64,000 nt of DNA, from positions 736,001 through 800,000 of the forward strand of contig CAVUVW010000014.1 in NCBI GenBank assembly GCA_963745035.1. Reading direction: 5' to 3'. The translations under genes were made by a program, and so were the position numbers. Below the pieces are notes generated by a model, which saw only the letters and a list, made by a program, of their open reading frames with translations, was not told where the DNA came from and made no database searches. This stretch comes from an uncultured delta proteobacterium. Its GTDB lineage: Bacteria > Desulfobacterota > Binatia > UBA9968. Shown here piece after piece: positions 11,906-36,861 of this stretch (positions within the stretch are counted from its first letter, which is position 1; each line of letters starts with the position of its first letter).

Positions 11906-12676
11906 TCACAAGCGCGGCGACGGTTTGCCGATATGAATATGCGCCCCCGTCGAGGCTCCGGGAACGGCGTTTCTAAACGCGATGAACGGAATCCCCGCTT
12001 GGCGCAGATGGTTTAGCAGAGAATGCCCTTCCTTGCTGTCCGGGTGGAGCGCCACGTCCATCGCGTCGCGGTGGTCAAAGCGCAAGCGGTCATGCGTCGC
12101 CGTTTGACCCAGTGCACTGATCGGCAAGACGCGGCCGAAAGTCTCCATAAAAAACTTTTCGATTTTCGAAACGTCGCCGAGCTCCCACGACGCTGCGCCG
12201 TTAAACCGCAGCAACATCCGGCTTTCGCTATATCCTCCCGGCGCGAGCTTGGGCAGTCGCAGCAGCTCGCCGAGCATCGCTACTTCGATGATCGCCATGT
12301 CGGTTTCCGCCAGCCAGCGCTTGTCTTCGTCGACCTTGAGCGTGGCTTGCGCCAAGGCATGCTCGGCCTGTACCACATCGTTGCGCGCGATCAAACCCTG
12401 ATCGTAGAGCTCGCGCCGCCGGTGATATTCTTTGGCACGTCGGTCTCGCTCGTTTTCATGTAGCGCCAGCAGTTTTTCCGCTCCGGCGCGAGTCTCCCTC
12501 ATTTTCTCGATCACGTCTGTGCGGAAGCGAGCAAGCTCGGCATCCGTCAAGCTTGTCCGCGGGCTCACCCCGGATCGCGATTGCGCTTGCTTGTCTTGCT
12601 GCTGCGCGCTCGCGCTCGCGCAAGTCAGCACCAGTGCCAAAGCCTTTCCCAAACCTGTCAATGTTAAAAGGCGCAT
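11906..12676 (-). CDS. exported coiled-coil protein with C-terminal His/Asp metallopeptidase-like domain
   Basis: Signal peptide; HDRLRFDHRDAMDVALHPDS and GAHIHIG; paralogue of 13354-14121. Confidence 0.75.
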   Translation of the reverse strand: MRLLTLTGLGKALALVLTCASASAQQQDKQAQSRSGVSPRTSLTDAELARFRTDVIEKMRETRAGAEKLLALHENERDRRAKEYHRRRELYDQGLIARNDVVQAEHALAQATLKVDEDKRWLAETDMAIIEVAMLGELLRLPKLAPGGYSESRMLLRFNGAASWELGDVSKIEKFFMETFGRVLPISALGQTATHDRLRFDHRDAMDVALHPDSKEGHSLLNHLRQAGIPFIAFRNAVPGASTGAHIHIGKPSPRL

Positions 12677-12839
12677 CCCGTGTTTCGGCGTGCCGGTCGT
12701 GCCGCTGCACGAGTGTAAAAAGTATGCTATCTCCGGTCAAGACGACTGCTGGGGGCGGTGATCTGGAAGGGTGGGAAAGATACGGGGCGCCGGCTGCGGT
12801 GCCCCGTAGTTTGAATCTCATCGTGTGAGAACGTGACGA

Positions 12840-13028
12840 CTAGGCGGAGCAAGTAAAAGGCGACATCACGCAGTTGGAGACTTTCGCCAGGCTTGCTGCC
12901 AGGCTGTCGCCGATGTTGGTGTCTCGAACCCCCATCCAGAAAACCAACGCGACAAGCAGGACAACAAAGGTATACTCAACAAGGCCTTGTCCATCCTCTT
13001 CATGCCACAACCGTTTGAGCAGGTTCAT
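12840..13028 (-). CDS. flp: Flp family type IVb/Tad pilin
   Basis: Leader ending EEDG, then QGLVEY (G-x4-EY) and a hydrophobic helix; GAGG RBS upstream. Confidence 0.85.
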   Translation of the reverse strand: MNLLKRLWHEEDGQGLVEYTFVVLLVALVFWMGVRDTNIGDSLAASLAKVSNCVMSPFTCSA

Positions 13029-13095
13029 TCTCTATTCCTCCTAATCTTGAGAGTTGTTAAAAAACATCGTTCACTCAAATCTGACTGGTCGTCAG

Positions 13096-13111
13096 AGCAA
13101 CCGCGATGCCA
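13096..13111 (-). promoter_or_regulatory. sigma-54 (-24/-12) promoter for flp
   Basis: Minus strand TGGCATCGCGGTTGCT = GG-N10-GC, about 70 nt upstream of the pilin ATG. Confidence 0.65.
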
Positions 13112-13353
13112 TGGAGCACGGCGTGAATGGCATCCCCTGACTGGAAAAAGTCCGAGGAGGTGCCTGGCGGATAGTCAAAACAACCTGGATCGAAAACGGA
13201 CAAGAGGGAAGGGCAAAACCGCCCGCGCGCAGATTTGTGCTTCAGGGAGAGATCGGCCGGTTCAATGTCGTCGGCAGATTGCGTTATTGCTCAGCGGCAA
13301 ACACTGCCGGCGTATCCTATTACAGACAATGATAAACGCGGGGTTTTGGTTTC

Positions 13354-14121
13354 CTAGTGCCTGACCCGGGTGGAAGGCTTCCCGATGTGGATATGCGGAC
13401 CGGTAGAAACACCGGGACTGGCGCCGCGAAACGCAATGAAAGGAATGCCGCTTTTGCGCAGATGCTCGATCAGCGCTTTGCCTTCGACACTGTCGGGATG
13501 AAGCGCAACGTCCATCGAATCTCGATGATCGAAACGCAAGCGATTATGGGTCGCGGACTGACCGATCGCCGTGACCGGCAGGCGCCGGCCGAACCTCTGG
13601 GAGAAATACCTCTCGATCCGCGGCGCCTCGCGCAACGACCATTTGAAGTTTCCGTTGAAACGCGCCAGATCGCTTGTCTCGCTGTAACCGTTAACCGGCA
13701 GGGCTGGCAGCCGGTTCACCTTTTCACCCAACACCGCTTCCGTGATCGCGATATCGATCTCCATTACGGAATCGCGCATCGCATGCACGCGTTTGAGCGT
13801 GGCGATGAGCGTTTGTTCAGCCTCGTGAACTTGATCTTTCGAAACCTCGCCTTCCTGATAGAGCTTGCGCCGCTGGATGACTTCAAGCCGCCAACGCGAT
13901 TGCTCCCGCTCCAGAGCGGCGAGCTGCTCGCGCTCCTTGGCAAGCGTTTCTTTCATATCTCCCATGGTATCCAAACTTCCGGAAGCGCCAGGTTTGCCGC
14001 CTGTCCGGAACGGTTCCCCAGGCCATCGCAACGTATTCAACGCAATCATCGCCATCGCCACCAGCGGAAGCAACGCGGCCCCGGCCAACAGGCGCCACGA
14101 TTTCGCCAAATCGGAAAACAT
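13354..14121 (-). CDS. membrane-anchored paralogue of 11906-12676
   Basis: N-terminal hydrophobic helix; HNRLRFDHRDSMDVALHPDS and GPHIHIG. Confidence 0.75.
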   Translation of the reverse strand: MFSDLAKSWRLLAGAALLPLVAMAMIALNTLRWPGEPFRTGGKPGASGSLDTMGDMKETLAKEREQLAALEREQSRWRLEVIQRRKLYQEGEVSKDQVHEAEQTLIATLKRVHAMRDSVMEIDIAITEAVLGEKVNRLPALPVNGYSETSDLARFNGNFKWSLREAPRIERYFSQRFGRRLPVTAIGQSATHNRLRFDHRDSMDVALHPDSVEGKALIEHLRKSGIPFIAFRGASPGVSTGPHIHIGKPSTRVRH

Positions 14122-14164
14122 GAGGCCCGGATTGTAGAGGCTTGAGATTAGCCGGTCAAGGCAA

Positions 14165-14203
14165 CGTCTAGCTCGTAACCGGTGAACCGTTACGAGCTAG
14201 ACG
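14165..14203. terminator. strong hairpin downstream of the molybdoenzyme operon
   Basis: Perfect 15-bp inverted repeat CGTCTAGCTCGTAAC / GTTACGAGCTAGACG with 9-nt loop; only a short U run follows on the minus strand. Confidence 0.55.
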
Positions 14204-14241
14204 CATAGGAGGAAGGCAATCGGCGGCGATCATAGCCGCGG

Positions 14242-15225
14242 CTAGACCGAAGCGAGCAAGCCGCGCTGCACCAGATCTTGGGCCATTTTCACCTTGTAAA
14301 TATTGTCTTTGAGTGGCTTGGCACCCTCGAGCGCGATTTCGCCCGCCTGTACTGCCACGGCCTCATCGAGCTTTTTGCCACGCAAGAATTCTTCCGATTT
14401 TCGCGCGCGCCACGGTATCGGCGCGACGCCGCCGAGCACCACCCGTGCATCGCGCACTACACCTCCGGAGCTTTCGACCACGGTTGCTACCGCGACGATC
14501 GCGTGATCCCACGCCAAGCGTTCGCGCACTTTGTGGTAAAAGCCCTTGCTACCGGGCTTGGGCGTCGGCACGTAAATCTCGGTGACCACCTCGCTGGGAT
14601 TCAGAATATTCTCGCGCTTGTAATCAACCGACGGCAGGACGAAAAACTTTTCCAGCGGAACCGTCTTTTCGTCCGCCGGGCCGGCGACTTTGATTTGCGC
14701 GCCCAGCGCAACCAGTGCCGGCGCGGTATCCGAAGGATGGACAATGAAACTCGGACCACCACCAAGGATAGCGTGGAAACGGCCGTCGCCGGTGACTGTA
14801 TAGCAAACCTGCCCGCCTTTGCGCAGGCAGTTGAAGTTCGAGGAGCGAAAGTACCAACAAAACGGCCGCTGGCAAATATTGCCGGCGATGGTGCCGGCAT
14901 TGCGAATCTGCGGCGATGCCGCGACCCCGGCGGCATCGGAAAGAATAAGCAGCTTTTCCCGGATCGCCGGATGTTCTTCGATGTCGGCGAGCTTGGCCAA
15001 TGCACCGATGCGAAAACCGCCGCGTTCTTCTTTGATAGAATCCAGACCGGGGATAGTTTTTAGGTTAATGAGATAGTCGGGCTCTACGACATGATCTTTC
15101 ATGAGCTGCAGATATTCGCTGCCGCCGCCGACCACCGCCGCGCTTTTCTTTTGCTGCTGAAATTTTTGCAGCAGGCCAATTGCTTCCTTGACGCTTTTCA
15201 CATCGATATTTTCGAACTTATTCAT
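14242..15225 (-). CDS. xanthine dehydrogenase family FAD-binding subunit (PaoB/YagS-like)
   Basis: GGGSEY, ASPQIRNAGTIAGNICQRPFCWYFR, CLRKGGQVC, HPSD. Confidence 0.9.
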   Translation of the reverse strand: MNKFENIDVKSVKEAIGLLQKFQQQKKSAAVVGGGSEYLQLMKDHVVEPDYLINLKTIPGLDSIKEERGGFRIGALAKLADIEEHPAIREKLLILSDAAGVAASPQIRNAGTIAGNICQRPFCWYFRSSNFNCLRKGGQVCYTVTGDGRFHAILGGGPSFIVHPSDTAPALVALGAQIKVAGPADEKTVPLEKFFVLPSVDYKRENILNPSEVVTEIYVPTPKPGSKGFYHKVRERLAWDHAIVAVATVVESSGGVVRDARVVLGGVAPIPWRARKSEEFLRGKKLDEAVAVQAGEIALEGAKPLKDNIYKVKMAQDLVQRGLLASV

Positions 15226-15244
15226 GGGCGCTCCCTTCTCCGTC

Positions 15245-17458
15245 CTAGACGCGAGTCGCGCGAACGATTTTGTCCGGCGTGATCGGCAGTTCTTTGAAGC
15301 GTTTGCCGGTGGCGTTGAAAATGGCATTGGCGATCGTCGCCACCGCCGGCGTGATCGGCGGCTCGCCGACCACTTTTCCGCCGAAAGGACCGTAGGAGTC
15401 ATAATGCTCGATGAAAATAACCTCGATCTCAGGTGATTCCAGATGGGTCGGCACTTTGGCATCACGGTAATTGGGATTGACCGGGATGGCAGTCAACCGG
15501 TCGATGATCAGCTCCTCCGAGAAAGCCATGCCGATGCCCTGCACCACCCCGCCTTTGATTTGGCTTTCCGCCGGCAGGCGATTGATGATCGTGCCGGAAT
15601 CGTGCGCCGCTACGTAGCGTGTGATCGCTACATGCCCCGTCCAGGTGTCGACTTCGACTTCGGCGAAGTGCGCCGCGAAGCTCTTGCCCTCGACGTCTTT
15701 GAACGAGGGATTTGTTGTCGCCCGGCCGATCAGTTCGCCGGCCCGCGCGACCACCCGCGCCAGCGGCAGTTTTTGCCCCGGTGTAGCGCGCACAAAAACT
15801 TCGCTGTCGCGTAAATCCAACTCTTCGGGCTTCACTTTCAGTTGCGGCGCGGCGATATTGAAGATTTGCCGGCGCACATCTTCGGCGGCGGCGATCACCG
15901 CCGGCCCGGTGAACGGCGTTGTGCGGCTGCCGGATTCGCCGACAGAATAAGGTGTCACGTCGGTATCGCCGTTAGTCACCTGAATTTGGCTCAGCGGAAT
16001 CCCCAGCGCCTCCGCCGCGATGATCGCCATCGTCGATTTCGCACCGGTGCCGATATCGGTGACGCCGACGAGAACATGAGCGGTGCCGTCGGGGTTCAGG
16101 CGGATCGTCGCCGCGCCCAGACCGGGGCGAAACGGATAGCCGCCCAACGCCATGCCGATGCCGTGCTTTTTCACTCCGCCCATGGCGCCGGGCTTGTGCC
16201 ACTTCTCGCTCCAGCCGATGCGCTTGGCTCCTTCCGTGATGCACTCCTCCAGATGATTCGAGGTGAATGGCGTTTTGCTTTTGTATTTCTGAATCCGGTT
16301 GCGCATGAACATGTCGACTGGATTGATCTCCATCTCATGCGCGATGTGATCCAGGAACGAAGCGAAACCGAACACCGACTGAGGATAGGCCGGCGCGCGA
16401 TAGTTGGCGCCGACCACGGTATTGGTGTGCACGGGCTTGATGTGTTTTCTGAAGTTGGGGATCTGATAAAAGTCGGTGCCGCTCAAGTTGCCGCTCTGCT
16501 TGCGGTACGCGCCCATGTTGGTGACCGCGTCCAGCGATACCGCGGTAATCGTGCCGTCTTTCTTCACGCCGATCTTGTAGTGCTGCTCGGAGGACCAACG
16601 CCCATGCATGCCGATGTAGTCGTCTTCCCGGGTAAATTCGACTTTCACCGGCTGGGCCGCAACCTTGGCGAGCATGGCGGCCATATAGTCATAGTCCTGA
16701 GCTTGATTTTTGTTGCCGAAGCCGCCGCCCATGTATTTGCACACCACGCGTACCTTGCTCAGCGGCAAGTTAAAATCTTTAGCGATGTCGGTGCGCGCGT
16801 TCGAAACGCCTTGGGTCGAGGCGTAAACGGTCAGTTTACCCGCGTCCCATTTGGCGATGCTCACACGCCGCTCGAGTTGGGCGTTGTTCACATGCTTCGT
16901 GATATAAGTATCTTCGAAAACCCGATCCGCTTCCTTAAAACCTTGGTCCACGTCGCCCCAGATCTCCTCGATAGGCGCGCTAAAATTGCCTTTGCCCACC
17001 GAAAGATTGCCGCTCGGGTTGATCTTTGGCGCATCCGGTTTGAGCGCCTCGTTGGCGTCGAGCACATGGGGCAGCTTCTCGTACTTCACCTCGATCAGCT
17101 TGAGCGCGTCTTCGGCAATATGGCGGTCCGTCGCCGCCACCGCCGCCACCGGATCGCCGACGTAGCGCACTGGGTTATTGAAGATGAACCGCTGATGCGT
17201 GTGACCGCCGCTTGACCAGGGAATTTGTGCGTTGCCGTGATGAATGATCGCTCTCACTCCCGGCAGCTTCTCCGCCTTCGAGACATCGATGCTGACAATC
17301 TTGGCGTGCGGCACCGTGCTGCGCAAAACCCGCGCATAGAGCATGCCGGGAAGCTGGATGTCGCCGGTGTACTGCGCCTGGCCGGTCACTCGTTCGTAGC
17401 CATCGATGCGGGTGATTCTCTTGCCGACAACGGAAAACTCTTTCGATGCTTGTGCCAT
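15245..17458 (-). CDS. xanthine dehydrogenase family molybdopterin-binding subunit
   Basis: VTGQAQYTGD, MGGGFGNK, YRAP, DIGTG, GSRTT, GGKVVGEPP. Confidence 0.92.
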   Translation of the reverse strand: MAQASKEFSVVGKRITRIDGYERVTGQAQYTGDIQLPGMLYARVLRSTVPHAKIVSIDVSKAEKLPGVRAIIHHGNAQIPWSSGGHTHQRFIFNNPVRYVGDPVAAVAATDRHIAEDALKLIEVKYEKLPHVLDANEALKPDAPKINPSGNLSVGKGNFSAPIEEIWGDVDQGFKEADRVFEDTYITKHVNNAQLERRVSIAKWDAGKLTVYASTQGVSNARTDIAKDFNLPLSKVRVVCKYMGGGFGNKNQAQDYDYMAAMLAKVAAQPVKVEFTREDDYIGMHGRWSSEQHYKIGVKKDGTITAVSLDAVTNMGAYRKQSGNLSGTDFYQIPNFRKHIKPVHTNTVVGANYRAPAYPQSVFGFASFLDHIAHEMEINPVDMFMRNRIQKYKSKTPFTSNHLEECITEGAKRIGWSEKWHKPGAMGGVKKHGIGMALGGYPFRPGLGAATIRLNPDGTAHVLVGVTDIGTGAKSTMAIIAAEALGIPLSQIQVTNGDTDVTPYSVGESGSRTTPFTGPAVIAAAEDVRRQIFNIAAPQLKVKPEELDLRDSEVFVRATPGQKLPLARVVARAGELIGRATTNPSFKDVEGKSFAAHFAEVEVDTWTGHVAITRYVAAHDSGTIINRLPAESQIKGGVVQGIGMAFSEELIIDRLTAIPVNPNYRDAKVPTHLESPEIEVIFIEHYDSYGPFGGKVVGEPPITPAVATIANAIFNATGKRFKELPITPDKIVRATRV

Positions 17459-17469
17459 AGAGACCTCCC

Positions 17470-18087
17470 TTAGCGGCTCTTTGCGGCCGCGAGCACGGCT
17501 GCAACTTCGCGGTTATAATTGCCGCAGCGGCAGAGATTACCGGATAAGCCGCGGCGCACCTGCGCTTCGTTGGGCTTGGGATTCTTAAGCAGCAACGCCT
17601 TTCCCGACATGATCTGACCCGAGGTGCAAAAACCGCATTGCGGCCCGTCATGCTCGATGAAAGCTTCCTGCACGGGGTCGAGTTTTTCCCCTTTGGCAAG
17701 TCCCTCAATGGTGAGAATATCCTTGCCCTGCATCCATACCGCTAGTTGGCTGCAGGAATACATGTTGCGACTGTCGATGATCACCGTGCAAGCGCCGCAC
17801 TCGCCGCGGTCGCAGCCAATCTTGGTGCCGGTGAGCTGCAGCTGATCGCGCAACACTTCGGCAAGCGTGCTGCGGTGCTCGACCTCCACGCGGTACGTCT
17901 TGCCGTTCACTTTGAGTGCGATCGGCGTCTTGCCCCGGCTCGTGCCGACCGATTCCGCGGAGTACGCCTCGGCCGAATCGGTCTTGGTGAGCCCCGTTGA
18001 AACCACCGCGGTGCCGATCGCGCCCCCGCCCAGCCCTTTCAGAAACGAGCGCCGGGAGAGCTTGTTACTTTTATTTTCCTCTTCCAT
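17470..18087 (-). CDS. 2x[2Fe-2S] subunit with Tat signal (PaoA/YagT-like)
   Basis: SRRSFLKG twin-arginine leader; GCDRGECGAC, QCGFC, NLCRC. Confidence 0.92.
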   Translation of the reverse strand: MEEENKSNKLSRRSFLKGLGGGAIGTAVVSTGLTKTDSAEAYSAESVGTSRGKTPIALKVNGKTYRVEVEHRSTLAEVLRDQLQLTGTKIGCDRGECGACTVIIDSRNMYSCSQLAVWMQGKDILTIEGLAKGEKLDPVQEAFIEHDGPQCGFCTSGQIMSGKALLLKNPKPNEAQVRRGLSGNLCRCGNYNREVAAVLAAAKSR

Positions 18088-18226
18088 AGTCGCTAACCTC
18101 CTGTTCGGGGCCGATGGTCGAACCCAATCAATTCGGCCCAGGCGTAATATGGATAGCTGCCCGGTGTCAACGCCAAAAATCCGCCTTGTCGCGCCGGGGC
18201 AAAATCGCTAAGCTTCGCCGTAAATC

Positions 18227-19114
18227 ATGGCTGAAAAATCACTGTGCTCCGAGGGTGCCGAGCTCGAGGACGTGCTCGATGAGCTCCAACGCGAGCATCG
18301 AGTCGAAGAAATATCCGGCTGGGACTCCGGCTTTATAAATCTCAATCGTGCCCTGGATGGTATCCGATCTGGCCTCTACCTGCTTATCGGCCCTCCCGGC
18401 ATCGGCAAGACCTCTTTCGCCAGGCAATTGCTCGATCAAATCGCGGAGCGAAATCGCGTCCCGGCAATATTCTTTAGCTTCGTCGAATCGAAAAAGGAGC
18501 TGAGAATAAAAACTTTGGCGCGCTTGAGCGGCCTGGATAACCGTGAGATCCGCCGGGGCAGTGCCTATGTTCTTCATTGGTACGGTGTGCCGCGTTTGGG
18601 TGGCACCGAAGCCGCAGAGTTGCCGCCGAGTTGGGAGAAGCTCAAACGAATGGCCGAAGAAGCGAAAGGCTGGCTCGATTCGGTTTACCTGATTGAATGC
18701 GAACGGAACACGAGCGTGGAGCAAATCGACGCCCAGGTCCGCGAGATATCCGGCGGCGAGCCTCCTTTGGTCGTGATCGACGACTGCCAGCGGCTCGGTT
18801 CTGCCGATCAAGCGGAGGATGCCCGCTTACTTATGGTCGTCGAACAACTGCAGACGCTGGCAAGGAGTTGCAAAACGCCGCTGTTTGCCACCTGGCCGGA
18901 CCTGGATGGAAACGCCGGCTTGGCCGGACGATGGAGCGAAAGAATTCCCGATGCGGACGGTATTTTGGTCATGCAGACGGATCCGGCGCGTACCCAAAAG
19001 CTCATCGAGCCGAATCAGGCGATCGTTGTCCACATCGTGAAAAACCGCGGCGGTGAAAAATGCAAGCTGGCTTTCGACTTTTTTCCCAGCTTCTCGCGCT
19101 TCCAAGAGGCGTAG
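18227..19114 (+). CDS. stand-alone DnaB-like helicase C-terminal (RecA-fold) ATPase
   Basis: ISGWDSGFINLNRAL, Walker A GPPGIGKT, Walker B VVIDDCQ, KNRGG; no DnaB N-terminal domain. Confidence 0.75.
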   Translation: MAEKSLCSEGAELEDVLDELQREHRVEEISGWDSGFINLNRALDGIRSGLYLLIGPPGIGKTSFARQLLDQIAERNRVPAIFFSFVESKKELRIKTLARLSGLDNREIRRGSAYVLHWYGVPRLGGTEAAELPPSWEKLKRMAEEAKGWLDSVYLIECERNTSVEQIDAQVREISGGEPPLVVIDDCQRLGSADQAEDARLLMVVEQLQTLARSCKTPLFATWPDLDGNAGLAGRWSERIPDADGILVMQTDPARTQKLIEPNQAIVVHIVKNRGGEKCKLAFDFFPSFSRFQEA

Positions 19115-19867
19115 CTACCACCGCCCTTGCCAGCGATAGCAAAGAATTTGCGCGGGTTTGTCTTTGGTCACGAGCGCGGCCTCGTAGCCGTCGCGCAGAG
19201 CCAATTCTTCGAGCGTCCAACCAGCTACCGACGCTTGGATGCGCACCTTGCCGTCGGCGAGCGCAATTTCCACCTCGTCCAATTGCCCCGCCAGACCCGT
19301 GCCCTTGGCCTTTAAGAACGCCTCTTTGCTGGTCCAACATTTATAAAAGGCCTGGCGCCGCAGCGCCGCGGGCAGGGCACGCAACGCCGCCACCTCGCGT
19401 TTGGTAAAAAAGCGGTTCGCGACCGCGAAAATCTCAAAATCGGATTTGACATATTCGATGTCGACGCCGATTTCATGCCGATCGTTCACCGCCACCAGCG
19501 CGGTTTCGTGAGAATGGGATAGATTGAAATCGATGCCGCAAGCGCTAAACTGCGCCGCCAACTTGGGCTTGCCGTTGGCGCCTTCGTTGAATTGCAAATC
19601 GGCCGCGCCCGTATGCGTGTAGCGCGCCAAGATGTCGCGCAACGCGGCATGCGCGATCACGTAGCGCCGCTGATCTCTCGCGAACTTGAATTTCTCGGCT
19701 CGCGCCTGTTCGTCGGGCAAAAGCCGCTCGCGGCAAAAACCGACGTCACATCCGGGATCGTCCAGCTCCACTGCCCAGACATGCGCGTCGCCGCCGAGCG
19801 GCGGAAGCGGATCAGGCGCTGACAACCACCGGCTCATGGATGACTCGCGGAGCCTTTGCCTGGCCAT
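19115..19867 (-). CDS. Sfp-type 4'-phosphopantetheinyl transferase
   Basis: GKP, FNLSHS, IGVDIE, WTSKEAFLKAKGTG. Confidence 0.92.
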   Translation of the reverse strand: MARQRLRESSMSRWLSAPDPLPPLGGDAHVWAVELDDPGCDVGFCRERLLPDEQARAEKFKFARDQRRYVIAHAALRDILARYTHTGAADLQFNEGANGKPKLAAQFSACGIDFNLSHSHETALVAVNDRHEIGVDIEYVKSDFEIFAVANRFFTKREVAALRALPAALRRQAFYKCWTSKEAFLKAKGTGLAGQLDEVEIALADGKVRIQASVAGWTLEELALRDGYEAALVTKDKPAQILCYRWQGRW

Positions 19868-20219
19868 GCAGTGCGCTATCGAATTTGCGCATATGAGCCG
19901 CGCTCATCAGACGACGGCCTCGCCGCGCAACGCCCGCGACGATGACCCGCTCGCCGTTGCGCGTAATCCGCAGATCGCATCGGCCGGAGAAGAAAATCAT
20001 CGTGCGCGGATGCTCGTAGACCGTGGTTTTGTGCGGCACCTCCTCGACGTAGATATCAAAGAGGCGGCCGGCCGGCAGATTGACGGTCCGGGTATGCATG
20101 AGATCGCCTTCGAAGAAAACTTCGAGCCAATTGCGATTCTCCGTCACAGCGAGGATAATTCCGGCGGCGTTCTTGATTTCCGCGATCAGTTCTTCGCCAC
20201 CGGCTGCTTCCCGTGCCAT
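19812..20219 (-). CDS. hypothetical protein (true 3' end may be near 19905 if frameshifted)
   Basis: Co-oriented, 12 bp after the ligase stop; last ~30 residues look frameshifted and overlap the PPTase gene. Confidence 0.6.
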   Translation of the reverse strand: MAREAAGGEELIAEIKNAAGIILAVTENRNWLEVFFEGDLMHTRTVNLPAGRLFDIYVEEVPHKTTVYEHPRTMIFFSGRCDLRITRNGERVIVAGVARRGRRLMSAAHMRKFDSALHGQAKAPRVIHEPVVVSA

Positions 20220-20231
20220 GAGTGTCCTTGG

Positions 20232-21762
20232 CTAATTCGCCAGCAACGTCTCCGCGTCGCGAATGGTTTTTCCCGATGAGGTGCGCGGCAGCGCGTCGCG
20301 CACGACGATGCGATCCGGCACCTTGAAATTGGCGAGATTGGCGCGCAGAAACGTCAACAGTTCTTTTTCGTTGACGGCCGCTCCCGGGCGCGGCACCACT
20401 GCAGCGCCGATGACTTGGCCGCGCTTGGCGTCGGGGATGGCAAACACCACCGTCTCCTGCACGCCCGGATAAGTGTAAATCAGGTTTTCCACTTCCGCCG
20501 GATAGACGTTGAGGCCTCCGGTAATAATCATGTCGTCGCGCCGCCCCAAATGATAGTAATAGCCGTCGGCGCCGCGCTTGCCGACGTCGCCGGTGTAAAG
20601 CCAGCCGTCGCGAACGCGCTCGGCGGTCGCCTCGGGCCGGCGAAAGTAGCCTTTCATGACGTGCGGGCCGCGTGTGATGATTTCGCCGGGTTCGTCGTCG
20701 CCGACTTCTTTGCCCCTTTCATCGACGATTTTCACCTCTACGCCCGGAACCGCGCGGCCGATGCTGCCCATTTTCGCCTCGGCTTTGGCCGGCTCGACCA
20801 AGGTAATCATCGGCGAGGTCTCGGTGAGGCCGTAGCCTTGAATGACTCGGATATGCGGCTGCGCGGCTTGAAACGCGCGCAGCAGCGGCAGCGGTATGCT
20901 GGTCCCCATCATCGCGGCGATCTTCACGCTGCTCGTGTCATAGCTCGCGAGATTCTTTACGCCCAGCAAAAGTTGAAAGACGATCGGCACGCTCTCGAAT
21001 ACGTTCACGCGATATTTTTGAATGCCTTCCAGGAGCGTGATCGGGTTGATCTGATCAAAGATCACCAGCGTGTAGCCCTTTTCGGCGAGCTCGTTGCAGA
21101 CGATCGGACCGACGATGTGCGACATCGGCAAAATGCAGCCGCGCATGGTCGACCCGTCGCTGACGCCCATCTCGGTCATCACGCGCGGGTACTGAGCGAG
21201 ATTGCGATACGACAACACCACGCCCTTTGGTTCGCCGGTGGTGCCCGAGGTGTAGAGAATCAGCGCGTCGTCATCGTCATGCAAGCGCGGCGGCGAAACC
21301 TGCGCCGCCGGCACAGCAAATCGCTTTTCGAAGCTTTGCTCCCCGTCCCCATTGACGATCCATACAGGGATCGCGCCCGTCGCTTGAAATATTTCCTCGA
21401 CCTCCGGATACAACTGACTGTGAACGATCAGAAGCTTCAGGTCGGCGTCTTGCAAAACGCCCTCCAGCTCCTTGCCCTTCAGCCGCGCATCGAGAATGAC
21501 GGTAACGGCGCCAAGCTTTTGGCTGGAGTAATAGCTCAGCGGAATGGCGGTGGAATTGGGCAGCAAGACTCCCACGCGGTCACCCTGGCGAAATTCCTTC
21601 CTGCTGCAGGTGTGCCGCCAAAGCATGCACGCGCTGATTGAGCGCCGCGAAGGTCAATTCTTCCTCTTTCGCGATGAGCGCAGTTTTTTGCGGCTGCCGC
21701 GCGGCCGTCTTCGCCAACACCTCGGCTGCGAAAAATCCTATCGAACCGGTATCGTTTGCCAT
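20232..21762 (-). CDS. long-chain acyl-CoA ligase / adenylate-forming enzyme, frameshift near 21593
   Basis: YTSGTTGEPKG, QGYGLTE, YTGDVG, GRRDDMIITGG, LPRTSSGK; N-terminus MANDTGSIGFF is in another frame. Confidence 0.88.
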
Positions 21763-22729
21763 ATCGCAAAAGCCCTCTGAAACGGTTTGTACCAGCGCGA
21801 CAGCTGCGCCAGCTCGCCGCGCTGGAGTTTTAGTTTTCCCTGCTGGGTCGCCAGAAATGCGTCGATCCGGTTGCTGAACACCGCGTTCCACCACTCGGCT
21901 TTGCCGCGATCATGAACTCGCCGCCGTCGCCTTGGGCGAGATCCGCGATCTCGCCGTCGAGAAATCTCACCGTCCATGCTTCTCCGGTCTCGTCGAGCGA
22001 AAGCGTCAACGATGTCGTGAGCCCGGTTTCGGCGCCATGGCTGCGGAACTCCGAATCCCGGTTTGCGCCGTCGACCAATGCCTGCATGTGCTCTTTGGAA
22101 AAAAGCGCATAGCGCTCGCCGCCAACAGAAGACATCGACGGTTCCGGGCGCGCGCCGTTAGCCGCGGCCGTAGCACCGACTCGCTCTTTAAAGAATTGGC
22201 AGTGCACGGCCTCTTCGAGCAGATCGGTGAACAGAAACGCTTCTTGAAAACTCTTGCCGATGGCGACGGTGCCGTGACCTTTGATGATCACCACCGGATG
22301 ATATTTCAGCTCTTCGACGACTTTCTCGGGCTTGGTCACCGTCGGCGTGTCTTGTGCGATGATCGGCACTTCGCCGATAGTGTACTTTTCTTCGAAGCTC
22401 ACCGGCACAAAACTCTCGTGGCCGAGGGAGAACGCCAGAACCATGGGCGGATGGACGTGAACGATCGCCGCAGCCTCAGTGCCGGCATAGACCGCCATGT
22501 GCATCGGCGTTTCGCTGGAGGCGCGCTGATTTTTTTTGATCGGCTTGCCGGCGTGATCGATCCGCACCACATCTTCGGCGGTGAGAAAGCCGAGCGGCGC
22601 GTGCTGCCCGGTGATCAGAAAATCGTTCTTGCCGGCGCGGCAGCTCAGGTTGCCGCCCCAACCGCTGATCAGCCGGCGCTCGAAAAGCCGCCGCCCCCAA
22701 TTGACCATTTCGCGCTCGAGTTTGGTCAT
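21738..22729 (-). CDS. class II aldolase/adducin family protein fused to an SCP2-like domain, frameshift near 21905
   Basis: GGNLS, SSETPMH..VY, HVHPP, GHG; tail ...WWNAVFSNRIDAFLATQQGKLKLQRG resembles SCP2. Confidence 0.8.
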
Positions 22730-22735
22730 TGTTCG

Positions 22736-24260
22736 TTAGTTCTTTAGGAAGGCCCAGGGAACAACTTCCGTAGCGATGCGGAAAACATCGGCGCCCGCCG
22801 GACAGAGCTTTCGTCCCAGGAAAGTTCCAGCGTCGCGGTCACGCGTTGGTCCGCGTTCTGCTGCAGCGCTGAACATCTCGACTTCGACGCCGTGGATACG
22901 CGCCAAGCGCACCGCCAATTGCGAGCCACAAATACCTCTCGGCCCTTCTTCGGTCAACGTGTCGTAGAACAAGCAGAGCTTCTTGATCTCGCGCTGCGCG
23001 AATAACGTTCCCATCATGTTGTCGGAAACCAAGGTCACCGCCACGCGCCGCTCGATCAGTTCCGGCACCACAACTTCACTTCCCCAGAGTTCCGGGCGCA
23101 TCTCGGGAATCAACACGCTTTCGGCCTGTTCCGCTTTGAGCGCGCTGGCGAGGAAGGCATACTGGTTTTTTGGCGGCACGCCGTAGACCAGCAAATACTT
23201 GCCGCCGCGCTCTCGCTCGCGCTCCGGCTCCGAACTTTGCTTTTGGTACTTCCGCCGAAAACTTTCCGGCGTGTAAATCTCATCGAAGCCGATGAGCCGG
23301 GTAATCAGCGCCGCCGGGGTCATGTCGAACGCCGGGTAGCGCACCTGCAACATGCCATTGTTCGATCGGACCAACGACTCGCCCTGAAACTTGAGCAATT
23401 CCGCTCCCGGCCTTTCCTCGATCGCCACGTCCGCGCCGCGCTCAAGCGAGCGCGGGTCCTGCACGAGAGCGTAGAAGGGAATGGCAAAATCCTTGGCCAT
23501 CAAAGCCAAAGGATAGGTGCCGACTTTATTGATGATATCGCCGTTTTGCGCCGCACGGTCGGCGCCGACGATTACCGCGTTCACCGCGCCCTGCTGCATG
23601 ACTTGCGCCACAGCGTTGTCCGGGATGATCGACACGGCCACGCCGGCTTGGGCAAGCTCCCAGGCGGTCAGGCGCGTGCCCTGAAGATACGGCCGGGTTT
23701 CGCTCGCGATCACGGAAAACTTTTTCCCCAGCTCTGCGCAGCGCTGCGCCACCGCAACCAATTCACCGCTGACGTTGCAATGGGTCAGCACGCGCGCTGG
23801 ATCAGGCAGCGCGTCAGCCGCGAGTCGGGCGCGCGCGATCCGCCCGCCGACGATCCGCTGGCCGAGCTCCCTCGCCTGCTTGGCGATCGATTCTCCGGCG
23901 ATCACTGCCCGGCGGCAATTCGTCCAAGCCATGTGTCGAAAAAAGCTCCGAGACCGCGAAAATCAAAGGTCGGCCGCGCGGCGCAAAACTGCTCGGTCAT
24001 TTCCGCCAGACGCCGGCGCAGCGTCCGCGGCGTTCTTGTCGGGCGTGCTCGTTGCAGCCAGCGAGCGCGCCGCTGTAAAGAAACGTCAGCACCTGTCCGA
24101 AGGCGCGGGTTTTCATCGCGCGCACCGCGTCGAGCGCCTGCTCGACCTCGCGCACTTCCAGGTACTCGATTTTTTCCGGAATCTGGGTCTCGTCGAGAAT
24201 GCGAAAACCGGCGCCTTGCCAGAGAACCGGCTCGAACAGCGGACTTTGCGCGGCGCTCAT
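22736..24260 (-). CDS. mtnA: methylthioribose-1-phosphate isomerase-like protein with an extra C-terminal eIF2B-like repeat; at least two frameshifts between ~23910 and 24060
   Basis: ILDETQIP, ARPT, LTHCN, ETRPYLQGTRLTAWEL, GADR..NGD..NKVGTY, PAFDMTP. Confidence 0.8.
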
Positions 24261-24281
24261 GGTCGCTCCGGCTCAGGTATC

Positions 24282-25017
24282 CTAAAGATAGTGCAGCGCC
24301 TTGCGCGCCACTTCGATGGTCTTCTTCTCGGCTTCGAAGAATTGCGGATCGCGAAAGCCGAACTTGCCGTGCAAACACTCGTCGGACACCGCGAGCACCG
24401 CGCCGGCCTTTTTGCCGCGCACCTGCGCGATCGTCAGAAACGTCGAAGTTACCATGTCGATGCTTGAAATGTTTTGCTCGCTGAGCTGGCCGAATCAGCT
24501 CTGGGGTTTCCTGGAACAGCGCGTCGGTCGTGAAGATCCAGCCAAGATGATAGCGCACTCTCAAGCTGTCAGCGGCTTTCTTGAGGGCATCGACAATCTC
24601 GCCGTGCGCTACGGTGGAAAAATTCTCCGCCACGTAGTAGCGCGACGTGCCGTCGCCGCGCAGCGCACCGGTGACGATCACGAGATCGCCGATCTTGACG
24701 TTTTCCTGGAGCGAGCCGCAGCTGCCGACGCGAATGAGCGCCTGCGCCCCGGCGCCGCAGAGGATTTCCGTCGTGATCGCGGTGTCGGGCGCGTAGCGCC
24801 CGCCGTTGCCGACGGTGACGCGCTTGCCGTCGAGCGCGCCGCTGTGCATCTCGTAGTCGAGAAAGGTAAAATTTTTCTGCGGCGAGTCGAGCAGCTTGAG
24901 CAGCATTTCGCTCCGCTCTCTCGGACCGGGAATCAGCGCGTAGGGACCGAGCGAATCGGCTTTGAGGCCGAGCATGGACAGCATCCGCTGCGGCGTGAAA
25001 TGAGCTTCTTTGAGCAT
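24282..25017 (-). CDS. nucleoside phosphorylase (uridine/purine NP-I family), frameshift near 24492
   Basis: PGPRER, IRVGSCGSLQ, RGDGTSRYY, TTDALFQE; C-terminus SIDMVTS...AVSD in another frame to TAG 24282. Confidence 0.85.
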
Positions 25018-25019
25018 AA

Positions 25020-26238
25020 TCAAAGCGCCCGGTGGGTAAACGCCAGCAGATCCTCGAACGGCAAAGCCGCGTCCTTGAGATCGGCGAAGGCGCGCTCGCA
25101 GAGCGCGCTCGACGTGAGCACCAGCTCCGCGCCGCTGGCGACGGCTTCGCGCATCCGGTCCGCGGCGCTCCATTGCGCCAGCTCGGGGTCGGCCTCGGGC
25201 ACTCCGCCGCCGCCGCCGCAGCACCACGACCAGCGCCGGTTCCGCTCCATCTCGACCAGTTGAACGCCGGGAATCGCGCGCAGGATACTGCGCGGATCGT
25301 CAAACACGCCGGCGCCCCGCCCGAGATGGCAGGAGTCGTGATAGACGACCTTTTTTTCGATGCGCCGGGAAAATTTTAATCGGCCCGATTGAATCGCTTG
25401 GTTGACGTACTGCACGCCGTGCAGCGCGGTAAAGTTCGCGCCGCCGGTCTCTGGCGTACTCGCGCCAGATTCTCTGACAGCTGCCGCACGCGGTGACGAC
25501 TGTGGTGATGCCGGCTTTGGCGATGATCGCCAGATTGGCGTCTTTGAGCCGCTCGTACTCGCGGCGAAAGCCGAGATCGAAGGCGTAAAGCCCGCAGCAC
25601 TTCTCCTCGTCCCCGAGAATTACGAAATCCTCTCCGGCTTTTTGCATGATGCCGGCGAGCGCGCGGGCCGCGCTCCGGCCGCTGACGCGGTCCGCCGCGC
25701 ACCCCGCAAAGAGCAAGGTGGGCGCGCTTGTGTCGCGCAGCTTTTTGAGCCCGAGATCACCGGCCCAGGCGCCGCGCCCTTCCTGTGCCTCCGCCCAAGG
25801 ATTATCATGCGCGCGCAAGCCGTCGTAAATCGCGCGGTGCGCTTCGATGGGACCTTCCTTCTCGGTAATTTCCTCGCGCATCGCGACCGTGATGTCCCAC
25901 GGTCCGTAGCCGTCGCCGCGCACGCCGCAAAGCTCCTGGCACATGAGACAGTTGGTGCAGCCGTAGATCACTTCTTTGAGCTCGGGAGTAATCGAATCGA
26001 GCCCATGGAAAACCCGCTGCGCCATCAGCCAGCGCGACTTCGGCGTGTGTCGTTGAAAGCGATAAAACTCGTAGGGCGGACACTTCTCTTTGGGCCCGGG
26101 CGCATCTTCCATCGGATTGGCCGGACCATGCCCGTAGCAAGAGCCGCAGAGAACGCAGCCGCTGCTGCGTTCTTCCAGGCCCTTGGCATAGAGCCATTTT
26201 TCTACGCGCCGAAGGCCGACGGGGAAATCACTTTTCAT
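25020..26238 (-). CDS. HdrD/GlpC-like Fe-S oxidoreductase (4Fe-4S plus CCG domains), frameshift near 25445
   Basis: CVLCGSC...CP, CTNCLMCQELC, KCCG, ACGSC, YHDSCHLGR, WCCGGGGG; start uncertain (26238 or 26307). Confidence 0.85.
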
Positions 26239-26364
26239 GAAATTGACCGTGGGCGAAATCGTTAATGCCTTAACCTTTATAGCTCGCAGCTCATGAGTGT
26301 CAACCAATTCCCGGACAGAGGGATCGAAGGCAAACGACGCGCCACAGAGAACGGCGCTGCCGCA

Positions 26365-26817
26365 CTACTTTGGAGTCGCTTCGGGATTGAGCTTGCGCAG
26401 CAGAGCGGAAAGCTCCTTCTGTTGCGCACCGTCGAGCGCGGTAAAGATTTCCGACACACTTTTCTCGAACAGCGGCAGGGTCGACTTGTAGAGCTTGGCG
26501 CCTTTGTCCGTGAGCACGACGTGCACCACGCGGCGGTCATGCTCGTCGCGTTTGCGCAGCACCAGTTTCTTTTCTTCCAGCCGATCGACGATCCCGGTCA
26601 AGTTGCTCACCGTAACCATCATCTTGGCACCGATATCGCCGAATGGCAGGCCACCAGCGTAGCCGATGGTGGCGAGCACGTAAAATTGCGGCGGCGTGAG
26701 CCCGGCCTTCTGCAAATCGTTGTCCAGTTTTTTGTGGGATTGCAGGCTGAAGCGCAGAAATCGAACCCATAGACTGGTAGTATAAGCGGTGAAGAATGGA
26801 CGTGTATCGCCGCGCAT
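26365..26817 (-). CDS. MarR family transcriptional regulator
   Basis: GLTPPQFYVL, LTGIVDRLEEKKLV..DRRVVHVVLTDKG. Confidence 0.9.
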   Translation of the reverse strand: MRGDTRPFFTAYTTSLWVRFLRFSLQSHKKLDNDLQKAGLTPPQFYVLATIGYAGGLPFGDIGAKMMVTVSNLTGIVDRLEEKKLVLRKRDEHDRRVVHVVLTDKGAKLYKSTLPLFEKSVSEIFTALDGAQQKELSALLRKLNPEATPK

Positions 26818-26942
26818 TCGGCCAATGTATGCGCCCGCGCTGTTAAAAGCAACTTCGCGCGGCGATTCTGCGTAACCGCATGCATACGGCGCGCGGCGGC
26901 AGCGGCGATGATTCTGCAAGCACGCTCGGAAGGAACCAAGCG

Positions 26943-27677
26943 ATGAAACTCCACGTTCTCGGTTGCGGCGACGCCTTCGGCAGCGGCGGGCGTAATCAAA
27001 GCGGCTATCTCGTCGACGCAGGCGATCGGCTGTTTCTGCTCGATTGCGGCCCGACCACGCTCCTCGCCATGAAGCGGGCCGGATTCGATCCGCGGCGTCT
27101 CGACGCGATCATTCTCAGCCACCTCCACGGCGATCATTTCGGCGGTCTGCCGTTTTTCTTGATCGAGTATCTCTATCGACAACCGCGAGGGTACCCGCTG
27201 ACGATTGCCGGTCCGCAGGGCACCGAAGAGCGCGTCCGGCAGCTTTACGGCGTCATGTACGGCAGCGGCAGTTCTGAACGGGAGTTGCCGCCGGTTGAAT
27301 TTCTCATCCTGCAGCCGGAACAACGGCAAAACGTCGCCGGCATCGACGTATTTTCCTTCGCCGTGCCGCATCAGACCCAGGACGTTTCTCTGGCACTCAA
27401 AGTGTCGTCTCAGGGCAAACAGCTTCTTTTCTCCGGCGATTCGGCGTGGACCGATGTTTTTGTCCGGCACGCCGAGGGAGTCGACCTGTTCCTGTGCGAG
27501 TGCTCGTTTTTTGAGGAGCAGCCTGGCATGCACGTAAATTACCGGGCTTTGCAGGCTAATCTGGCGCGACTGCGATGCAAGAAGCTGATCCTCACTCACC
27601 TTGGCGAAGAGATGCTCGCGCGGCGGGACCAACTGGCGGTACCGACGGCAGAAGACGGAATGGTGATCGAAATTTAA
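26943..27677 (+). CDS. MBL-fold metallo-hydrolase (RNase Z/BN-like)
   Basis: LGCGDAFGSGGR, SHLHGDH, FSGDS, LTHL. Confidence 0.9.
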   Translation: MKLHVLGCGDAFGSGGRNQSGYLVDAGDRLFLLDCGPTTLLAMKRAGFDPRRLDAIILSHLHGDHFGGLPFFLIEYLYRQPRGYPLTIAGPQGTEERVRQLYGVMYGSGSSERELPPVEFLILQPEQRQNVAGIDVFSFAVPHQTQDVSLALKVSSQGKQLLFSGDSAWTDVFVRHAEGVDLFLCECSFFEEQPGMHVNYRALQANLARLRCKKLILTHLGEEMLARRDQLAVPTAEDGMVIEI

Positions 27678-33221: not shown

Positions 33222-33332
33222 AATGCTCCGCGCCTCCGCCGACCAATCGTGTTTTTCGCGGCGCGCAATGATGGCTTTGGGTCGCGCCGGTTTATTTGAC
33301 TTGCGAATATCGCTCTGTTAATTGTGCACTTC

Positions 33333-33421
33333 GATGCTAGGGGTGTCTGCGGCGCAGACTGAGAGCCTGTTAAGGTAACCCTTCGAACCTGATCCGGGTC
33401 GCACCGGCGTAGGGAAGCGTG
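33333..33421 (+). ncRNA. TPP riboswitch
   Basis: AGGGGTG...CTGAGA...ACCCTTCGAACCTGATCCGGGT..ACCGGCGTAGGGAA upstream of thiS. Confidence 0.95.
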
Positions 33422-33521
33422 AGAGTCAAAGTCGCGTCCGGCGAACGCCGGCGAGACATACTTGAAACCGTATTCCCTGGCCACTTCCAGTGGTCCTAGC
33501 GGATACGGTTTTTTGACTTTA

Positions 33522-35438: not shown

Positions 35439-35514
<76 letters not shown>

Positions 35515-35789: not shown

Positions 35790-36173
35790 CCGGTGATCCA
35801 AAATGTCGGCACCATAGGACACGATGTGCCGGTGTGGGATATCGCCGATAAATTCGGCGACGACACGACGTTGCTCGTTACAAATATGCCATAGGGACGG
35901 GATCTTGCCCATTGCCTCGGCGGCAGTGCCCTCGCGCTAATGCGCGGGCATGGGTTCGTCTGTGTCGAGCGGTCGATCAAGGAACTGGTGCGCCTGTCAG
36001 TTTTTATTCCGCGTAATGCTCGCGTCCAGCTTGCGGCAATGCAGATGGGTGAGTACAAGGCCCTCTCGCAGGGAGAAATCGAAGCCCGTTTGAAATTAGA
36101 TATAAACTCATCGAGCATGATCCGAGGTTGGGAGTATTGGGCGCGGGAAGCTGGATGCAAACACTTGTTGTAG
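35790..36173 (+). pseudogene. truncated class II aldolase
   Basis: VPVWDIADKFGDDTTLLVTN, in-frame TAG, then GRDLAHCLG..ALMRGHG; N-terminus missing. Confidence 0.7.
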
Positions 36174-36329
36174 AAAACTTCTCGCTTCGATAACAGAAAG
36201 TGGAAGTGGACGAACGGATTCAAAAGTTCGCCCAAGGCATCTTTTTAAGCGATGGGATCATTAACCGCGAAAACGCGCTTGTAAAACTCTGCTGTCATTC
36301 TCCGGCTCTGGGTACGTGAGGATATTGAG

Positions 36330-36620: not shown

Positions 36621-36861
36621 GGTGGAAACCATTCCTACTGTCTCGGACAAGTGGAAAGGCTCGGCATAGAAGAAACCATAGAAAGCGGCATCGTTAAGCA
36701 GCGGAGATTCGCTGGCAAACAACCCGTTCGCCTGTAAATGCCAGTCCTGTCGCAGAATGACAGTTTTGAGCGTCATGTTGTCACTGCAAATAACTAGCGA
36801 ATTCCAAACCTTACCGCATGGATCGTCTTTTGCTCAAGGACACTTGGCAGGAGGAACGAAA

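Follow-up and report, generated by a model that had tools for sequence, protein, structure and literature searches.

A run of eight genes on the minus strand of a 64,000-nucleotide (nt) stretch of contig CAVUVW010000014.1, from an uncultured delta proteobacterium, has an architecture that appears to be undescribed: three putative core enzymes of a dihydroxyacetone phosphate (DHAP) shunt stand together with an acyl-coenzyme A (CoA) ligase. The whole 64,000-nt stretch is called the window here and its first letter is position 1; a scan of its open reading frames (ORFs) and domains places the operon at 19115–26817. We consider it somewhat better than an even chance that the operon is a variant of the DHAP shunt, dedicated to the disposal of 5′-deoxynucleosides and extended by activation of an acid; its reactions and substrate are what we infer from the protein families. 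In the proposed scheme the phosphorylase would split a purine 5′-deoxy- or 5′-substituted nucleoside, arising from S-adenosylmethionine (SAM) or radical-SAM chemistry, into adenine and a 5-substituted ribose-1-phosphate. A paralogue of MtnA carrying an extra IF-2B-like domain would convert the latter to the corresponding ribulose-1-phosphate, and a class II aldolase fused to an SCP2 domain would cleave this to DHAP and an aldehyde, X-CH2-CHO. The aldehyde would be oxidized to the acid, in Omnitrophota by a clustered aldehyde dehydrogenase and in Binatia by an unlinked enzyme or possibly by an iron–sulphur (Fe-S) protein of the CCG type, and the ligase would then form the acyl-CoA. The MarR protein would be a local regulator, and the CCG protein an accessory redox partner in most Binatia. 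What we observe directly are the genes present, their domain families, the conservation of catalytic residues, the linkage in two phyla and a separate isomerase clade.

Three core enzymes of the DHAP-shunt type

The original prediction for this DNA, made from its letters alone, described eight co-oriented and mostly tightly packed genes, and this description is borne out; Pfam agrees with every family that it named, in intact orthologues as well. Gaps of 2 nt separate the Fe-S and phosphorylase genes, 21 nt the phosphorylase and isomerase genes, 6 nt the isomerase and aldolase genes, and 12 nt the ligase gene and a small hypothetical gene, while the aldolase and ligase genes share a 25-nt overlap. 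The spacing from the MarR gene to the Fe-S gene is 126 nt, with a TTG at 26307 as another possible start for the latter. Overlooked in the prediction was that five of the eight genes are not intact as read, and we return to this below.

The phosphorylase gene (24282–25017, minus strand; Pfam PNP_UDP_1) lies directly upstream of the isomerase gene. Its product forms a distinct subfamily of the DeoD/Udp-like hexameric type of NP-I phosphorylases and is not of the MtnP type; the nearest PDB entries, all at about 90–96 bits, are uridine phosphorylase (3qpb), T. thermophilus purine nucleoside phosphorylase (PNP; 1odi) and S. solfataricus 5′-methylthioadenosine (MTA) phosphorylase (1jds). The purine-type Ser-Asp and the phosphate Arg are kept. 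In 9/9 aligned members, D-M-V is found where other NP-I enzymes show E/D-M-E, the Glu of which presumably holds the 2′ and 3′ hydroxyls of ribose. A profile search of 1.84 billion representatives returned 97 proteins at E ≤ 1e-30; D-M-V/I/A motifs were present in 15 of the best 150 matches, concentrated at the top of the list, and the lower matches mostly carried EME or DME.

The isomerase (22736–24260, minus strand; Pfam IF-2B; 505 amino acids (aa) in intact orthologues) scores 193.8 bits against NCBIfam TIGR00524, over the cut-off of 185.85, and MtnA models (244 bits) fit it better than ribose-1,5-bisphosphate isomerase does (111 bits). The Cys159 of its THCN motif and the Asp239 of GADR..NGD are invariant in 20 isomerase sequences; we take them to be the counterparts of the catalytic pair of B. 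subtilis MtnA. The C-terminal ∼150 residues are a degenerate copy of the C-terminal half of IF-2B.

An alignment of 20 isomerase homologues was used for a profile search of genome contigs, from which the best 80 of 588 confirmed loci were kept, so that the taxonomic range given here is a lower bound. Loci L001–L017 are of the Binatia type, L018–L020 come from Omnitrophota and L021–L080 hold canonical MtnA; among the best 80 of 588 loci, as among database proteins, the closest relatives are metagenome-assembled genomes of Candidatus Binatia, the group to which we assign the source of this DNA. When 79 isomerase cores were placed in a FastTree phylogeny, the 19 sequences of the cluster type came out as a single clade (support 1.0) on a stem of 0.53 substitutions per site, apart from the 60 canonical MtnA sequences. 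Because a second MtnA (L045), from the same Omnitrophota genome as L019, groups with the canonical sequences, the cluster isomerase is, by this phylogeny, a distinct paralogue of MtnA. The extra IF-2B-like domain is encoded as a separate ORF in L019, and a small IF-2B-like ORF is also present in L020.

The company that this paralogue keeps is specific to it. An aldolase homologue stands beside the isomerase in 19/19 testable cluster-type loci, and profile hidden Markov models detected the phosphorylase in 18/19 of them. By tblastn, all 60 canonical MtnA loci lack an aldolase, phosphorylase, ligase or Fe-S homologue within 10 kb, and profile searches over six-frame ORFs agree. The gene clustering thus exceeds chance.

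The third core protein (21738–22729, minus strand) matches Pfam Aldolase_II at 134 bits and conserves the three Zn histidines, the glutamate of the SSE motif and the Asn/Thr/Ser of the phosphate site. The aldolase model PRK08660 scores 133.7 bits, compared with 64.3 bits for the MtnB dehydratase (cut-off 137). In a Foldseek search with the whole AlphaFold model (pLDDT 87.6), fuculose-1-phosphate aldolases came top and DrdA (6btd) ranked 29th. All matches fell on the aldolase domain, so that this search is no test of the SCP2 fold.

The C-terminal domain is, by profile comparison, a member of the SCP2 family, with putative lipid binding. PF02036 is weak in the Binatia orthologue of L001 (17.2 bits against a cut-off of 21.3) and clears the cut-off in the Omnitrophota homologues (34.5 and 31.7 bits); it is matched at E ≤ 0.01 by 11 of 18 family members, and the domains align along their full length. 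The AlphaFold model shows a separate C-terminal α/β domain with a helix–sheet–helix arrangement at residues 215–327. A search with this region found 142 database proteins at E ≤ 0.001. Nearly all of the 120 matches listed carry Aldolase_II together with SCP2, and nearly all of those listed with an organism name are from Omnitrophota. A separate search for longer proteins that contain the fusion found none, which is weak evidence. SCP2 domains usually go with hydrophobic ligands. With domains and catalytic residues kept in all three proteins, the claim that phosphorylase, MtnA-like isomerase and class II aldolase follow the logic of the DHAP shunt holds at the level of sequence.

The ligase belongs to the conserved unit

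The AMP-forming ligase of the ANL superfamily (20232–21762, minus strand; AMP-binding and AMP-binding_C domains) is best matched in NCBIfam by PRK06187, a subfamily of long-chain-fatty-acid-CoA ligases, against which the Binatia protein scores 410.9 bits and the Omnitrophota protein 435.6 (cut-off 476); the ligase's nearest PDB entries are feruloyl-CoA synthetase (8wev) and FadD13 (3r44).

Gene presence around the isomerase was scored by tblastn and ORF extraction, L020 being too short for scoring. Across L001–L017, the conserved unit is phosphorylase–isomerase–aldolase–ligase. The ligase is adjacent to the trio in 17/17 Binatia loci, the aldolase is present in 17/17 (with SCP2 in 16) and the phosphorylase in 16/16 testable loci; all three are found in both L018 and L019. 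Much of what surrounds this unit varies. The MarR gene is present in 14/14 testable Binatia loci and absent in L018 and L019; the Fe-S gene in 13/15, being absent in L015, L016, L018 and L019; the hypothetical gene in 6/13, again with neither L018 nor L019; and a 4′-phosphopantetheinyl transferase (PPTase) gene in 7/12 and in 0/2 Omnitrophota loci. The genes 3′ of the ligase differ among Binatia loci (PolA, a spermine-synthase-like protein, a response regulator, an LpxL-type acyltransferase). In L016 both flanks differ, yet MarR–phosphorylase–isomerase–aldolase–ligase is kept, here with an aldolase of 196 aa that has no SCP2 domain. The original prediction had counted ligase, PPTase and Fe-S genes alike with the trio; the ligase has kept its place there, and the other two have not.

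In L019 the order is PadR, ligase, phosphorylase, isomerase, the 156-aa IF-2B-like ORF, aldolase-SCP2, aldehyde dehydrogenase and a B12-binding radical SAM protein. L018 runs ligase, a nuclease-like insert, phosphorylase, isomerase, aldolase-SCP2, aldehyde dehydrogenase and B12-binding radical SAM. L020 (512–4133) has the same radical SAM family, but where the phosphorylase would stand, immediately 5′ of the isomerase gene and the small IF-2B-like ORF, there is an Amidohydro_2 protein. The radical SAM neighbour is thus found in 3/3 Omnitrophota loci. The ligase gene lies upstream of the trio in this phylum, unlike its position in Binatia, and because L018 and L019 hold it beside the trio at this different position, it is linked to the trio in a second phylum. 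Adjacency in 17/17 Binatia loci and another position in 2/2 Omnitrophota loci together strengthen the proposal that the ligase is functionally tied to the trio. The proposal that the aldehyde is oxidized and then activated likewise gains support, since an aldehyde dehydrogenase gene directly follows the aldolase-SCP2 gene in both L018 and L019. As a separate observation, the radical SAM gene of L018 is followed (12707–18510) by genes for a DUF2621 protein, an ApbA-like reductase, a TIGR04076 protein and two FabF proteins, a layout that recalls the radical-SAM lipid clusters discussed for ladderanes.

The remaining operon genes

The first gene of the operon (26365–26817, minus strand) is intact and encodes a MarR-family regulator (Pfam MarR, 57.8 bits), for which every NCBIfam match is far under its cut-off. 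Scans for promoters, terminators and inverted repeats round the operon gave counts near shuffled expectation and no convincing MarR operator. The second gene (25020–26238, minus strand) encodes an HdrD/GlcF/GlpC-like Fe-S protein, with Fer4_8 and two CCG stretches, which are seen in L001, where the gene is intact, as well as in both window fragments. NCBIfam comparison shows a resemblance to GlcF, GlpC and LdhH-type subunits; the best model is TfrB (141 bits, under a cut-off of 385) and no equivalog model was matched. Its absence from L015, L016 and the Omnitrophota loci is at odds with the earlier placing of this gene in the core.

Downstream of the ligase, a small conserved hypothetical gene (19812–20219, minus strand) encodes a protein of ∼100 aa in orthologues, to which the window copy adds 31 C-terminal residues. 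It is highly conserved, with invariant His37, His58, His65 and Cys76, and is predicted to be all-beta (pLDDT 79.7); no match was found in Pfam or NCBIfam, no PDB fold at E ≤ 0.001 with Foldseek and no usable match in the ESM Atlas. From the modelled fold, it is not a carrier protein. The last gene (19115–19867, minus strand) is intact and encodes an Sfp/HetI-type PPTase, with ACPS (64.5 bits) and AASDHPPT_N (40 bits) both over their cut-offs and the NCBIfam HetI model at 179 bits, under its cut-off of 370. Pfam scans of the window operon and of intact orthologues found no PP-binding domain or acyl carrier protein in any operon ORF. The PPTase had been proposed as a pathway member and the acid as cargo of a carrier; its patchy occurrence tells against the first, and the lack of any carrier domain and the all-beta hypothetical protein against the second. 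In our reading, the hypothetical protein and the PPTase are lineage-specific neighbours and not pathway steps.

Frameshifts in the central genes

Five consecutive genes (Fe-S/CCG, phosphorylase, isomerase, aldolase-SCP2 and ligase) hold 6–7 single-base frameshifts, each gene being split over two or three frames. The frameshifts were found by three-frame translation and by tblastn searches with the orthologous ORFs of eight related loci; a frame plot of GC by codon position was too noisy for placing them, and tblastn was used instead. In the Fe-S/CCG gene there is one near 25450, which leaves two frames; in the phosphorylase gene one near 24489, an extra C in CGGCCAG; in the isomerase gene two or three, at ∼24060–24010 and ∼23905; in the aldolase-SCP2 gene one near 21900, where one G is lost; and in the ligase gene one near 21590, an extra G. 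The contexts resolved, those in the phosphorylase, aldolase and ligase genes, are all single-base gains or losses at short runs. With frameshifts in all five of these central genes, this strain's operon is either mis-sequenced or inactive.

That the operon has decayed in this genome into a string of real pseudogenes, a question independent of its function, we regard as a serious possibility, though one we doubt. The frameshifts crowd into ∼6 kb, whereas 17 flanking orthologous genes (located between ∼9 and ∼33 kb in the window, ∼17 kb covered) are each in a single frame by tblastn, with no frameshift; by our own arithmetic, the chance that seven indels spread evenly over ∼23 kb would all fall within 6 kb is ∼1e-4. 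On the other hand, single-base frameshifts also split the genes for an ApbA/PanE reductase (∼2630), ThiG (∼34370) and a di-haem cytochrome c peroxidase (∼56050), and therefore the assembly carries indel errors (or pseudogenes) beyond the operon. The operon genes have no in-frame stops, and the isomerase matches P0001, an intact protein of 505 aa in the protein collection, with 98.7% identity over 387 residues. In addition, the CCG gene is split into two frames in another Binatia-type assembly (L004:7869–9091). Together with the position of the three resolved indels at short base runs, this overall pattern fits sequencing error of the indel type.

The 5-mer GCCAG/CTGGC lies within 5/9 frameshift neighbourhoods (sites at 25451, 25464, 24486, 24005, 24057 and 21585); it is common in the window, at 2.9 per kb, and its presence there may reflect chance or a systematic base-calling context.

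Substrate and alternative pathways

Several points weigh against the extended shunt. The conserved residues alone do not separate an aldolase from the MtnB dehydratase. The phosphorylase reaches no NCBIfam cut-off, and the aldolase and ligase also fall short of their equivalog cut-offs. No aldehyde dehydrogenase or radical SAM homologue of the Omnitrophota type was found in the window or in the Binatia loci, and the aldehyde oxidation step is therefore a gap in Binatia. The Binatia loci are from related genomes: because they also share a wider synteny (S11 peptidase, a metallo-β-lactamase (MBL)-fold gene, a DnaB_C-like ATPase and a molybdenum oxidoreductase), the conservation of their operon is partly inherited, which leaves three Omnitrophota loci as the independent comparison. 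The frameshifts of the five central genes belong in this list as well. Finally, plain 5′-deoxyadenosine as substrate leaves the SCP2 fusion and the invariant Val of the phosphorylase without explanation.

As to the substituent X, we give roughly even odds to a small group (H, from 5′-deoxyadenosine, or CH3S, from MTA) and to a hydrophobic one. The radical SAM neighbour in all three Omnitrophota loci, together with the simplicity of the scheme, suggests a small by-product. Several features make a hydrophobic 5′-substituent possible: the conserved SCP2 fusion, a ligase nearest to the long-chain type, the genes of lipid type that adjoin in L018, and the canonical MtnA kept alongside the cluster copy. 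A more specific form of this hydrophobic reading, which we hold to be rather unlikely, is that the substrate would be a hydrophobic 5′-C- or S-linked adenosine adduct made by radical-SAM chemistry, of which carbons 4′ and 5′ would be kept as a -CH2-CHO group on the lipid, then oxidized and activated with CoA. Its maker in Omnitrophota would be the neighbouring B12-binding radical SAM protein; adenine and three ribose carbons (as DHAP) would be removed, the SCP2 domain would hold the lipid, and the net effect would be a lipid chain lengthened by two carbons taken from SAM.

We think it similarly improbable that the operon is a plain DHAP shunt for 5′-deoxyadenosine or MTA, with the ligase a neighbour by chance or for unrelated fatty-acid metabolism and with a purely structural SCP2 domain. 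Clusters of phosphorylase, isomerase and aldolase are widespread and have been described without a ligase (PMC6079011, in the part available to us). AMP-binding ligases are very abundant gene families in general, and the aldolase of L016 lacks SCP2. Yet the ligase gene overlaps the aldolase gene by 25 nt, it stays adjacent even in L016, where the flanks differ, both Omnitrophota loci have a ligase of the same NCBIfam subfamily next to the trio at another position, and an aldehyde dehydrogenase is part of the same Omnitrophota operons.

Ordinary catabolism of purine nucleosides seems quite unlikely. Ribose-1-phosphate would then pass through ribulose-1-phosphate to DHAP and glycolaldehyde, and oxidation of the latter would give glycolate for the GlcF-like CCG protein and the ligase to process, in a route analogous to the haloarchaeal non-carboxylating pentose bisphosphate pathway. 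In favour, the phosphorylase belongs to the general DeoD/Udp type, the CCG protein has the GlcF-like resemblance already mentioned, and there are weak matches (62.6 and 66.7 bits) to the model of the haloarchaeal ribulose-1-phosphate aldolase. Domain scans of the window operon and related loci, however, showed no ribose-1-phosphate kinase, bisphosphate phosphatase or GlcD/E-type flavoprotein, the isomerase scores far better with MtnA models than with ribose-1,5-bisphosphate isomerase, the CCG gene is missing from L015, L016 and the Omnitrophota loci, and neither the SCP2 domain nor the radical SAM neighbour would be explained.

The full model of the original prediction fares slightly worse still, and we consider it very improbable. 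There, a lipophilic 5′-alkyl nucleoside such as adenosylhopane would yield an aldehyde that is oxidized, adenylated and loaded on CoA or on a carrier primed by the PPTase. The conserved SCP2 fusion (16/17 Binatia and 2/2 Omnitrophota loci, besides the database proteins), a ligase nearest to the long-chain type, FadD13 and feruloyl-CoA ligases, and the continuation of L018 into a lipid-type cluster with two FabF genes all speak for it, and the PNP homologue HpnG acts on adenosylhopane (PMC13459092, available part). The carrier branch is not supported, given the sporadic PPTase and the missing PP-binding domain, and L016 keeps the operon without SCP2. Adenosylhopane itself is not borne out as substrate: against the HpnG model TIGR03468 (cut-off 187.1) the phosphorylase scores 24.4 bits in Binatia and 47.3 bits in Omnitrophota, and no squalene–hopene cyclase, HpnH or other hopanoid gene was found among the window ORFs scanned. 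Squalene–hopene cyclase is also described as poorly conserved in Omnitrophota (preprint PMC12324291, available part), yet the aldolase-SCP2 fusion is common there.

Least probable of all is a methionine-salvage variant with the Aldolase_II protein as an MtnB-type dehydratase: MtnB is of the same Pfam family, shares the Zn histidines and glutamate (PMC3532061, available part) and its models match at 64 bits, but this is under both the cut-off of 137 and the aldolase-model scores, no enolase-phosphatase, acireductone dioxygenase or MtnW/X-type gene was found in the operon or in the Binatia and Omnitrophota loci scanned, an aldehyde dehydrogenase gene follows the aldolase gene in Omnitrophota, and a canonical MtnA lies elsewhere in the genome of L019.

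Genes around the operon

Downstream of the operon and in the same orientation is a three-gene molybdenum hydroxylase of the PaoABC/xanthine dehydrogenase type (14245–18087, minus strand), with a 2Fe-2S subunit bearing the twin-arginine signal SRRSFLK, a molybdenum-cofactor (MoCo) subunit and an FAD subunit. It is kept near the operon in L001, L004, L013 and L017. From its family it could oxidize aldehydes, yet it looks periplasmic. Between it and the PPTase gene, on the opposite strand (18227–19114, plus), is a gene for a DnaB_C/KaiC-like P-loop ATPase of 295 aa, which is in the same place in four Binatia loci. Divergent from the MarR gene is one for an MBL-fold hydrolase (26880–27677, plus strand; Lactamase_B_2) that is present in most Binatia loci; because it is ∼2 kb away from MarR in L014 and absent in L016, it is probably a mere neighbour.

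Further away, two paralogous genes without a Pfam match (11909–12736 and 13357–14196, minus strand) are both matched by a single orthologous ORF from related loci, at ∼50% and ∼65% identity. An Rfam scan of the window detected no riboswitch near the operon and, elsewhere, only a thiamine pyrophosphate riboswitch (33329–33432, plus strand), ahead of thiG–thiE, and a tRNA-Thr(CGT) (35439–35514, plus strand). The tRNA gene is followed by a stretch of low G+C content (36000–38000; 0.495 against ∼0.58) whose ORFs have no Pfam match, and which may be an integrated element.

Relation to known pathways and significance

The combination of phosphorylase, isomerase and class II aldolase is an established route to DHAP and an aldehyde (Beaudoin 2018, PMC6079011, available part), and the DHAP shunt, or disposal of 5-deoxyribose, is also the subject of E. 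coli papers (PMC10986504 and PMC12632272, available parts). In common with the described shunt (MtnP or MtnN plus MtnK, MtnA/DrdI, Ald2/DrdA), the operon has a phosphorylase, an IF-2B-family isomerase with the Cys and Asp that is paralogous to the MtnA of methionine salvage, and a Zn-type class II aldolase, and it would be expected to yield adenine, DHAP and an aldehyde. It differs in the DeoD/Udp-like hexameric phosphorylase with D-M-V and not E-M-E; in an isomerase of its own clade that carries or partners an extra degenerate IF-2B-like domain; in the fusion of the aldolase to SCP2; in the ligase as an integral component, to which Omnitrophota add an aldehyde dehydrogenase and a B12-binding radical SAM protein; and in a MarR or PadR regulator. 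Neither ‘CoA’ nor ‘aldehyde dehydrogenase’ occurs in the text of PMC6079011, as far as it was available.

Three other pathways invite comparison. The fluoroacetate route of Streptomyces cattleya, which takes 5′-fluoro-5′-deoxyadenosine through phosphorylase, isomerase, aldolase and aldehyde dehydrogenase (PMC6079011, available part), has the same sequence of steps up to the oxidation of the aldehyde to an acid. No fluorinase or chlorinase gene was seen in the operon or related loci scanned, and here the acid would also be activated with CoA. The hopanoid side-chain pathway (HpnH, HpnG; PMC13459092) resembles the operon in that a PNP-family enzyme acts on a lipophilic, 5′-carbon-extended adenosine made by a radical SAM protein; the ribose carbons are kept there, whereas the operon would cleave them, and HpnG and the operon phosphorylase are not orthologues. 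The haloarchaeal non-carboxylating pentose bisphosphate pathway uses a ribulose-1-phosphate aldolase (NCBIfam model NF053831); the operon differs from it in having no kinase or phosphatase and in an isomerase of the MtnA and not of the ribose-1,5-bisphosphate type.

The original prediction did not recognize the architecture as a described pathway, and our full-text literature searches turned up no description either. A genome paper on Binatota (PMC8262859) does not mention the architecture, nor hopanoids, squalene, methylthio or salvage.

5′-Deoxyadenosine and MTA are inhibitory by-products of radical SAM and other SAM-dependent enzymes, and to our knowledge the disposal routes for these nucleosides end at DHAP and a free aldehyde. 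If the extended shunt is correct, disposal would here continue as far as a CoA thioester, through a cluster conserved in two uncultured phyla, Binatia and Omnitrophota, and with all three core components modified, in the altered phosphorylase pocket, the isomerase pseudo-domain and the aldolase-SCP2 fusion. With intact orthologues available, and with core enzymes and a ligase that are small and soluble, this reading is directly testable. Should the substrate be small, heavy users of radical SAM enzymes would recover all the carbon of their by-product; should it be hydrophobic, the operon would point to so-far-unseen adenosylated lipids and to new acyl-CoA synthesis, and a two-carbon lipid extension, if true, would be an acyl-CoA route not described before.

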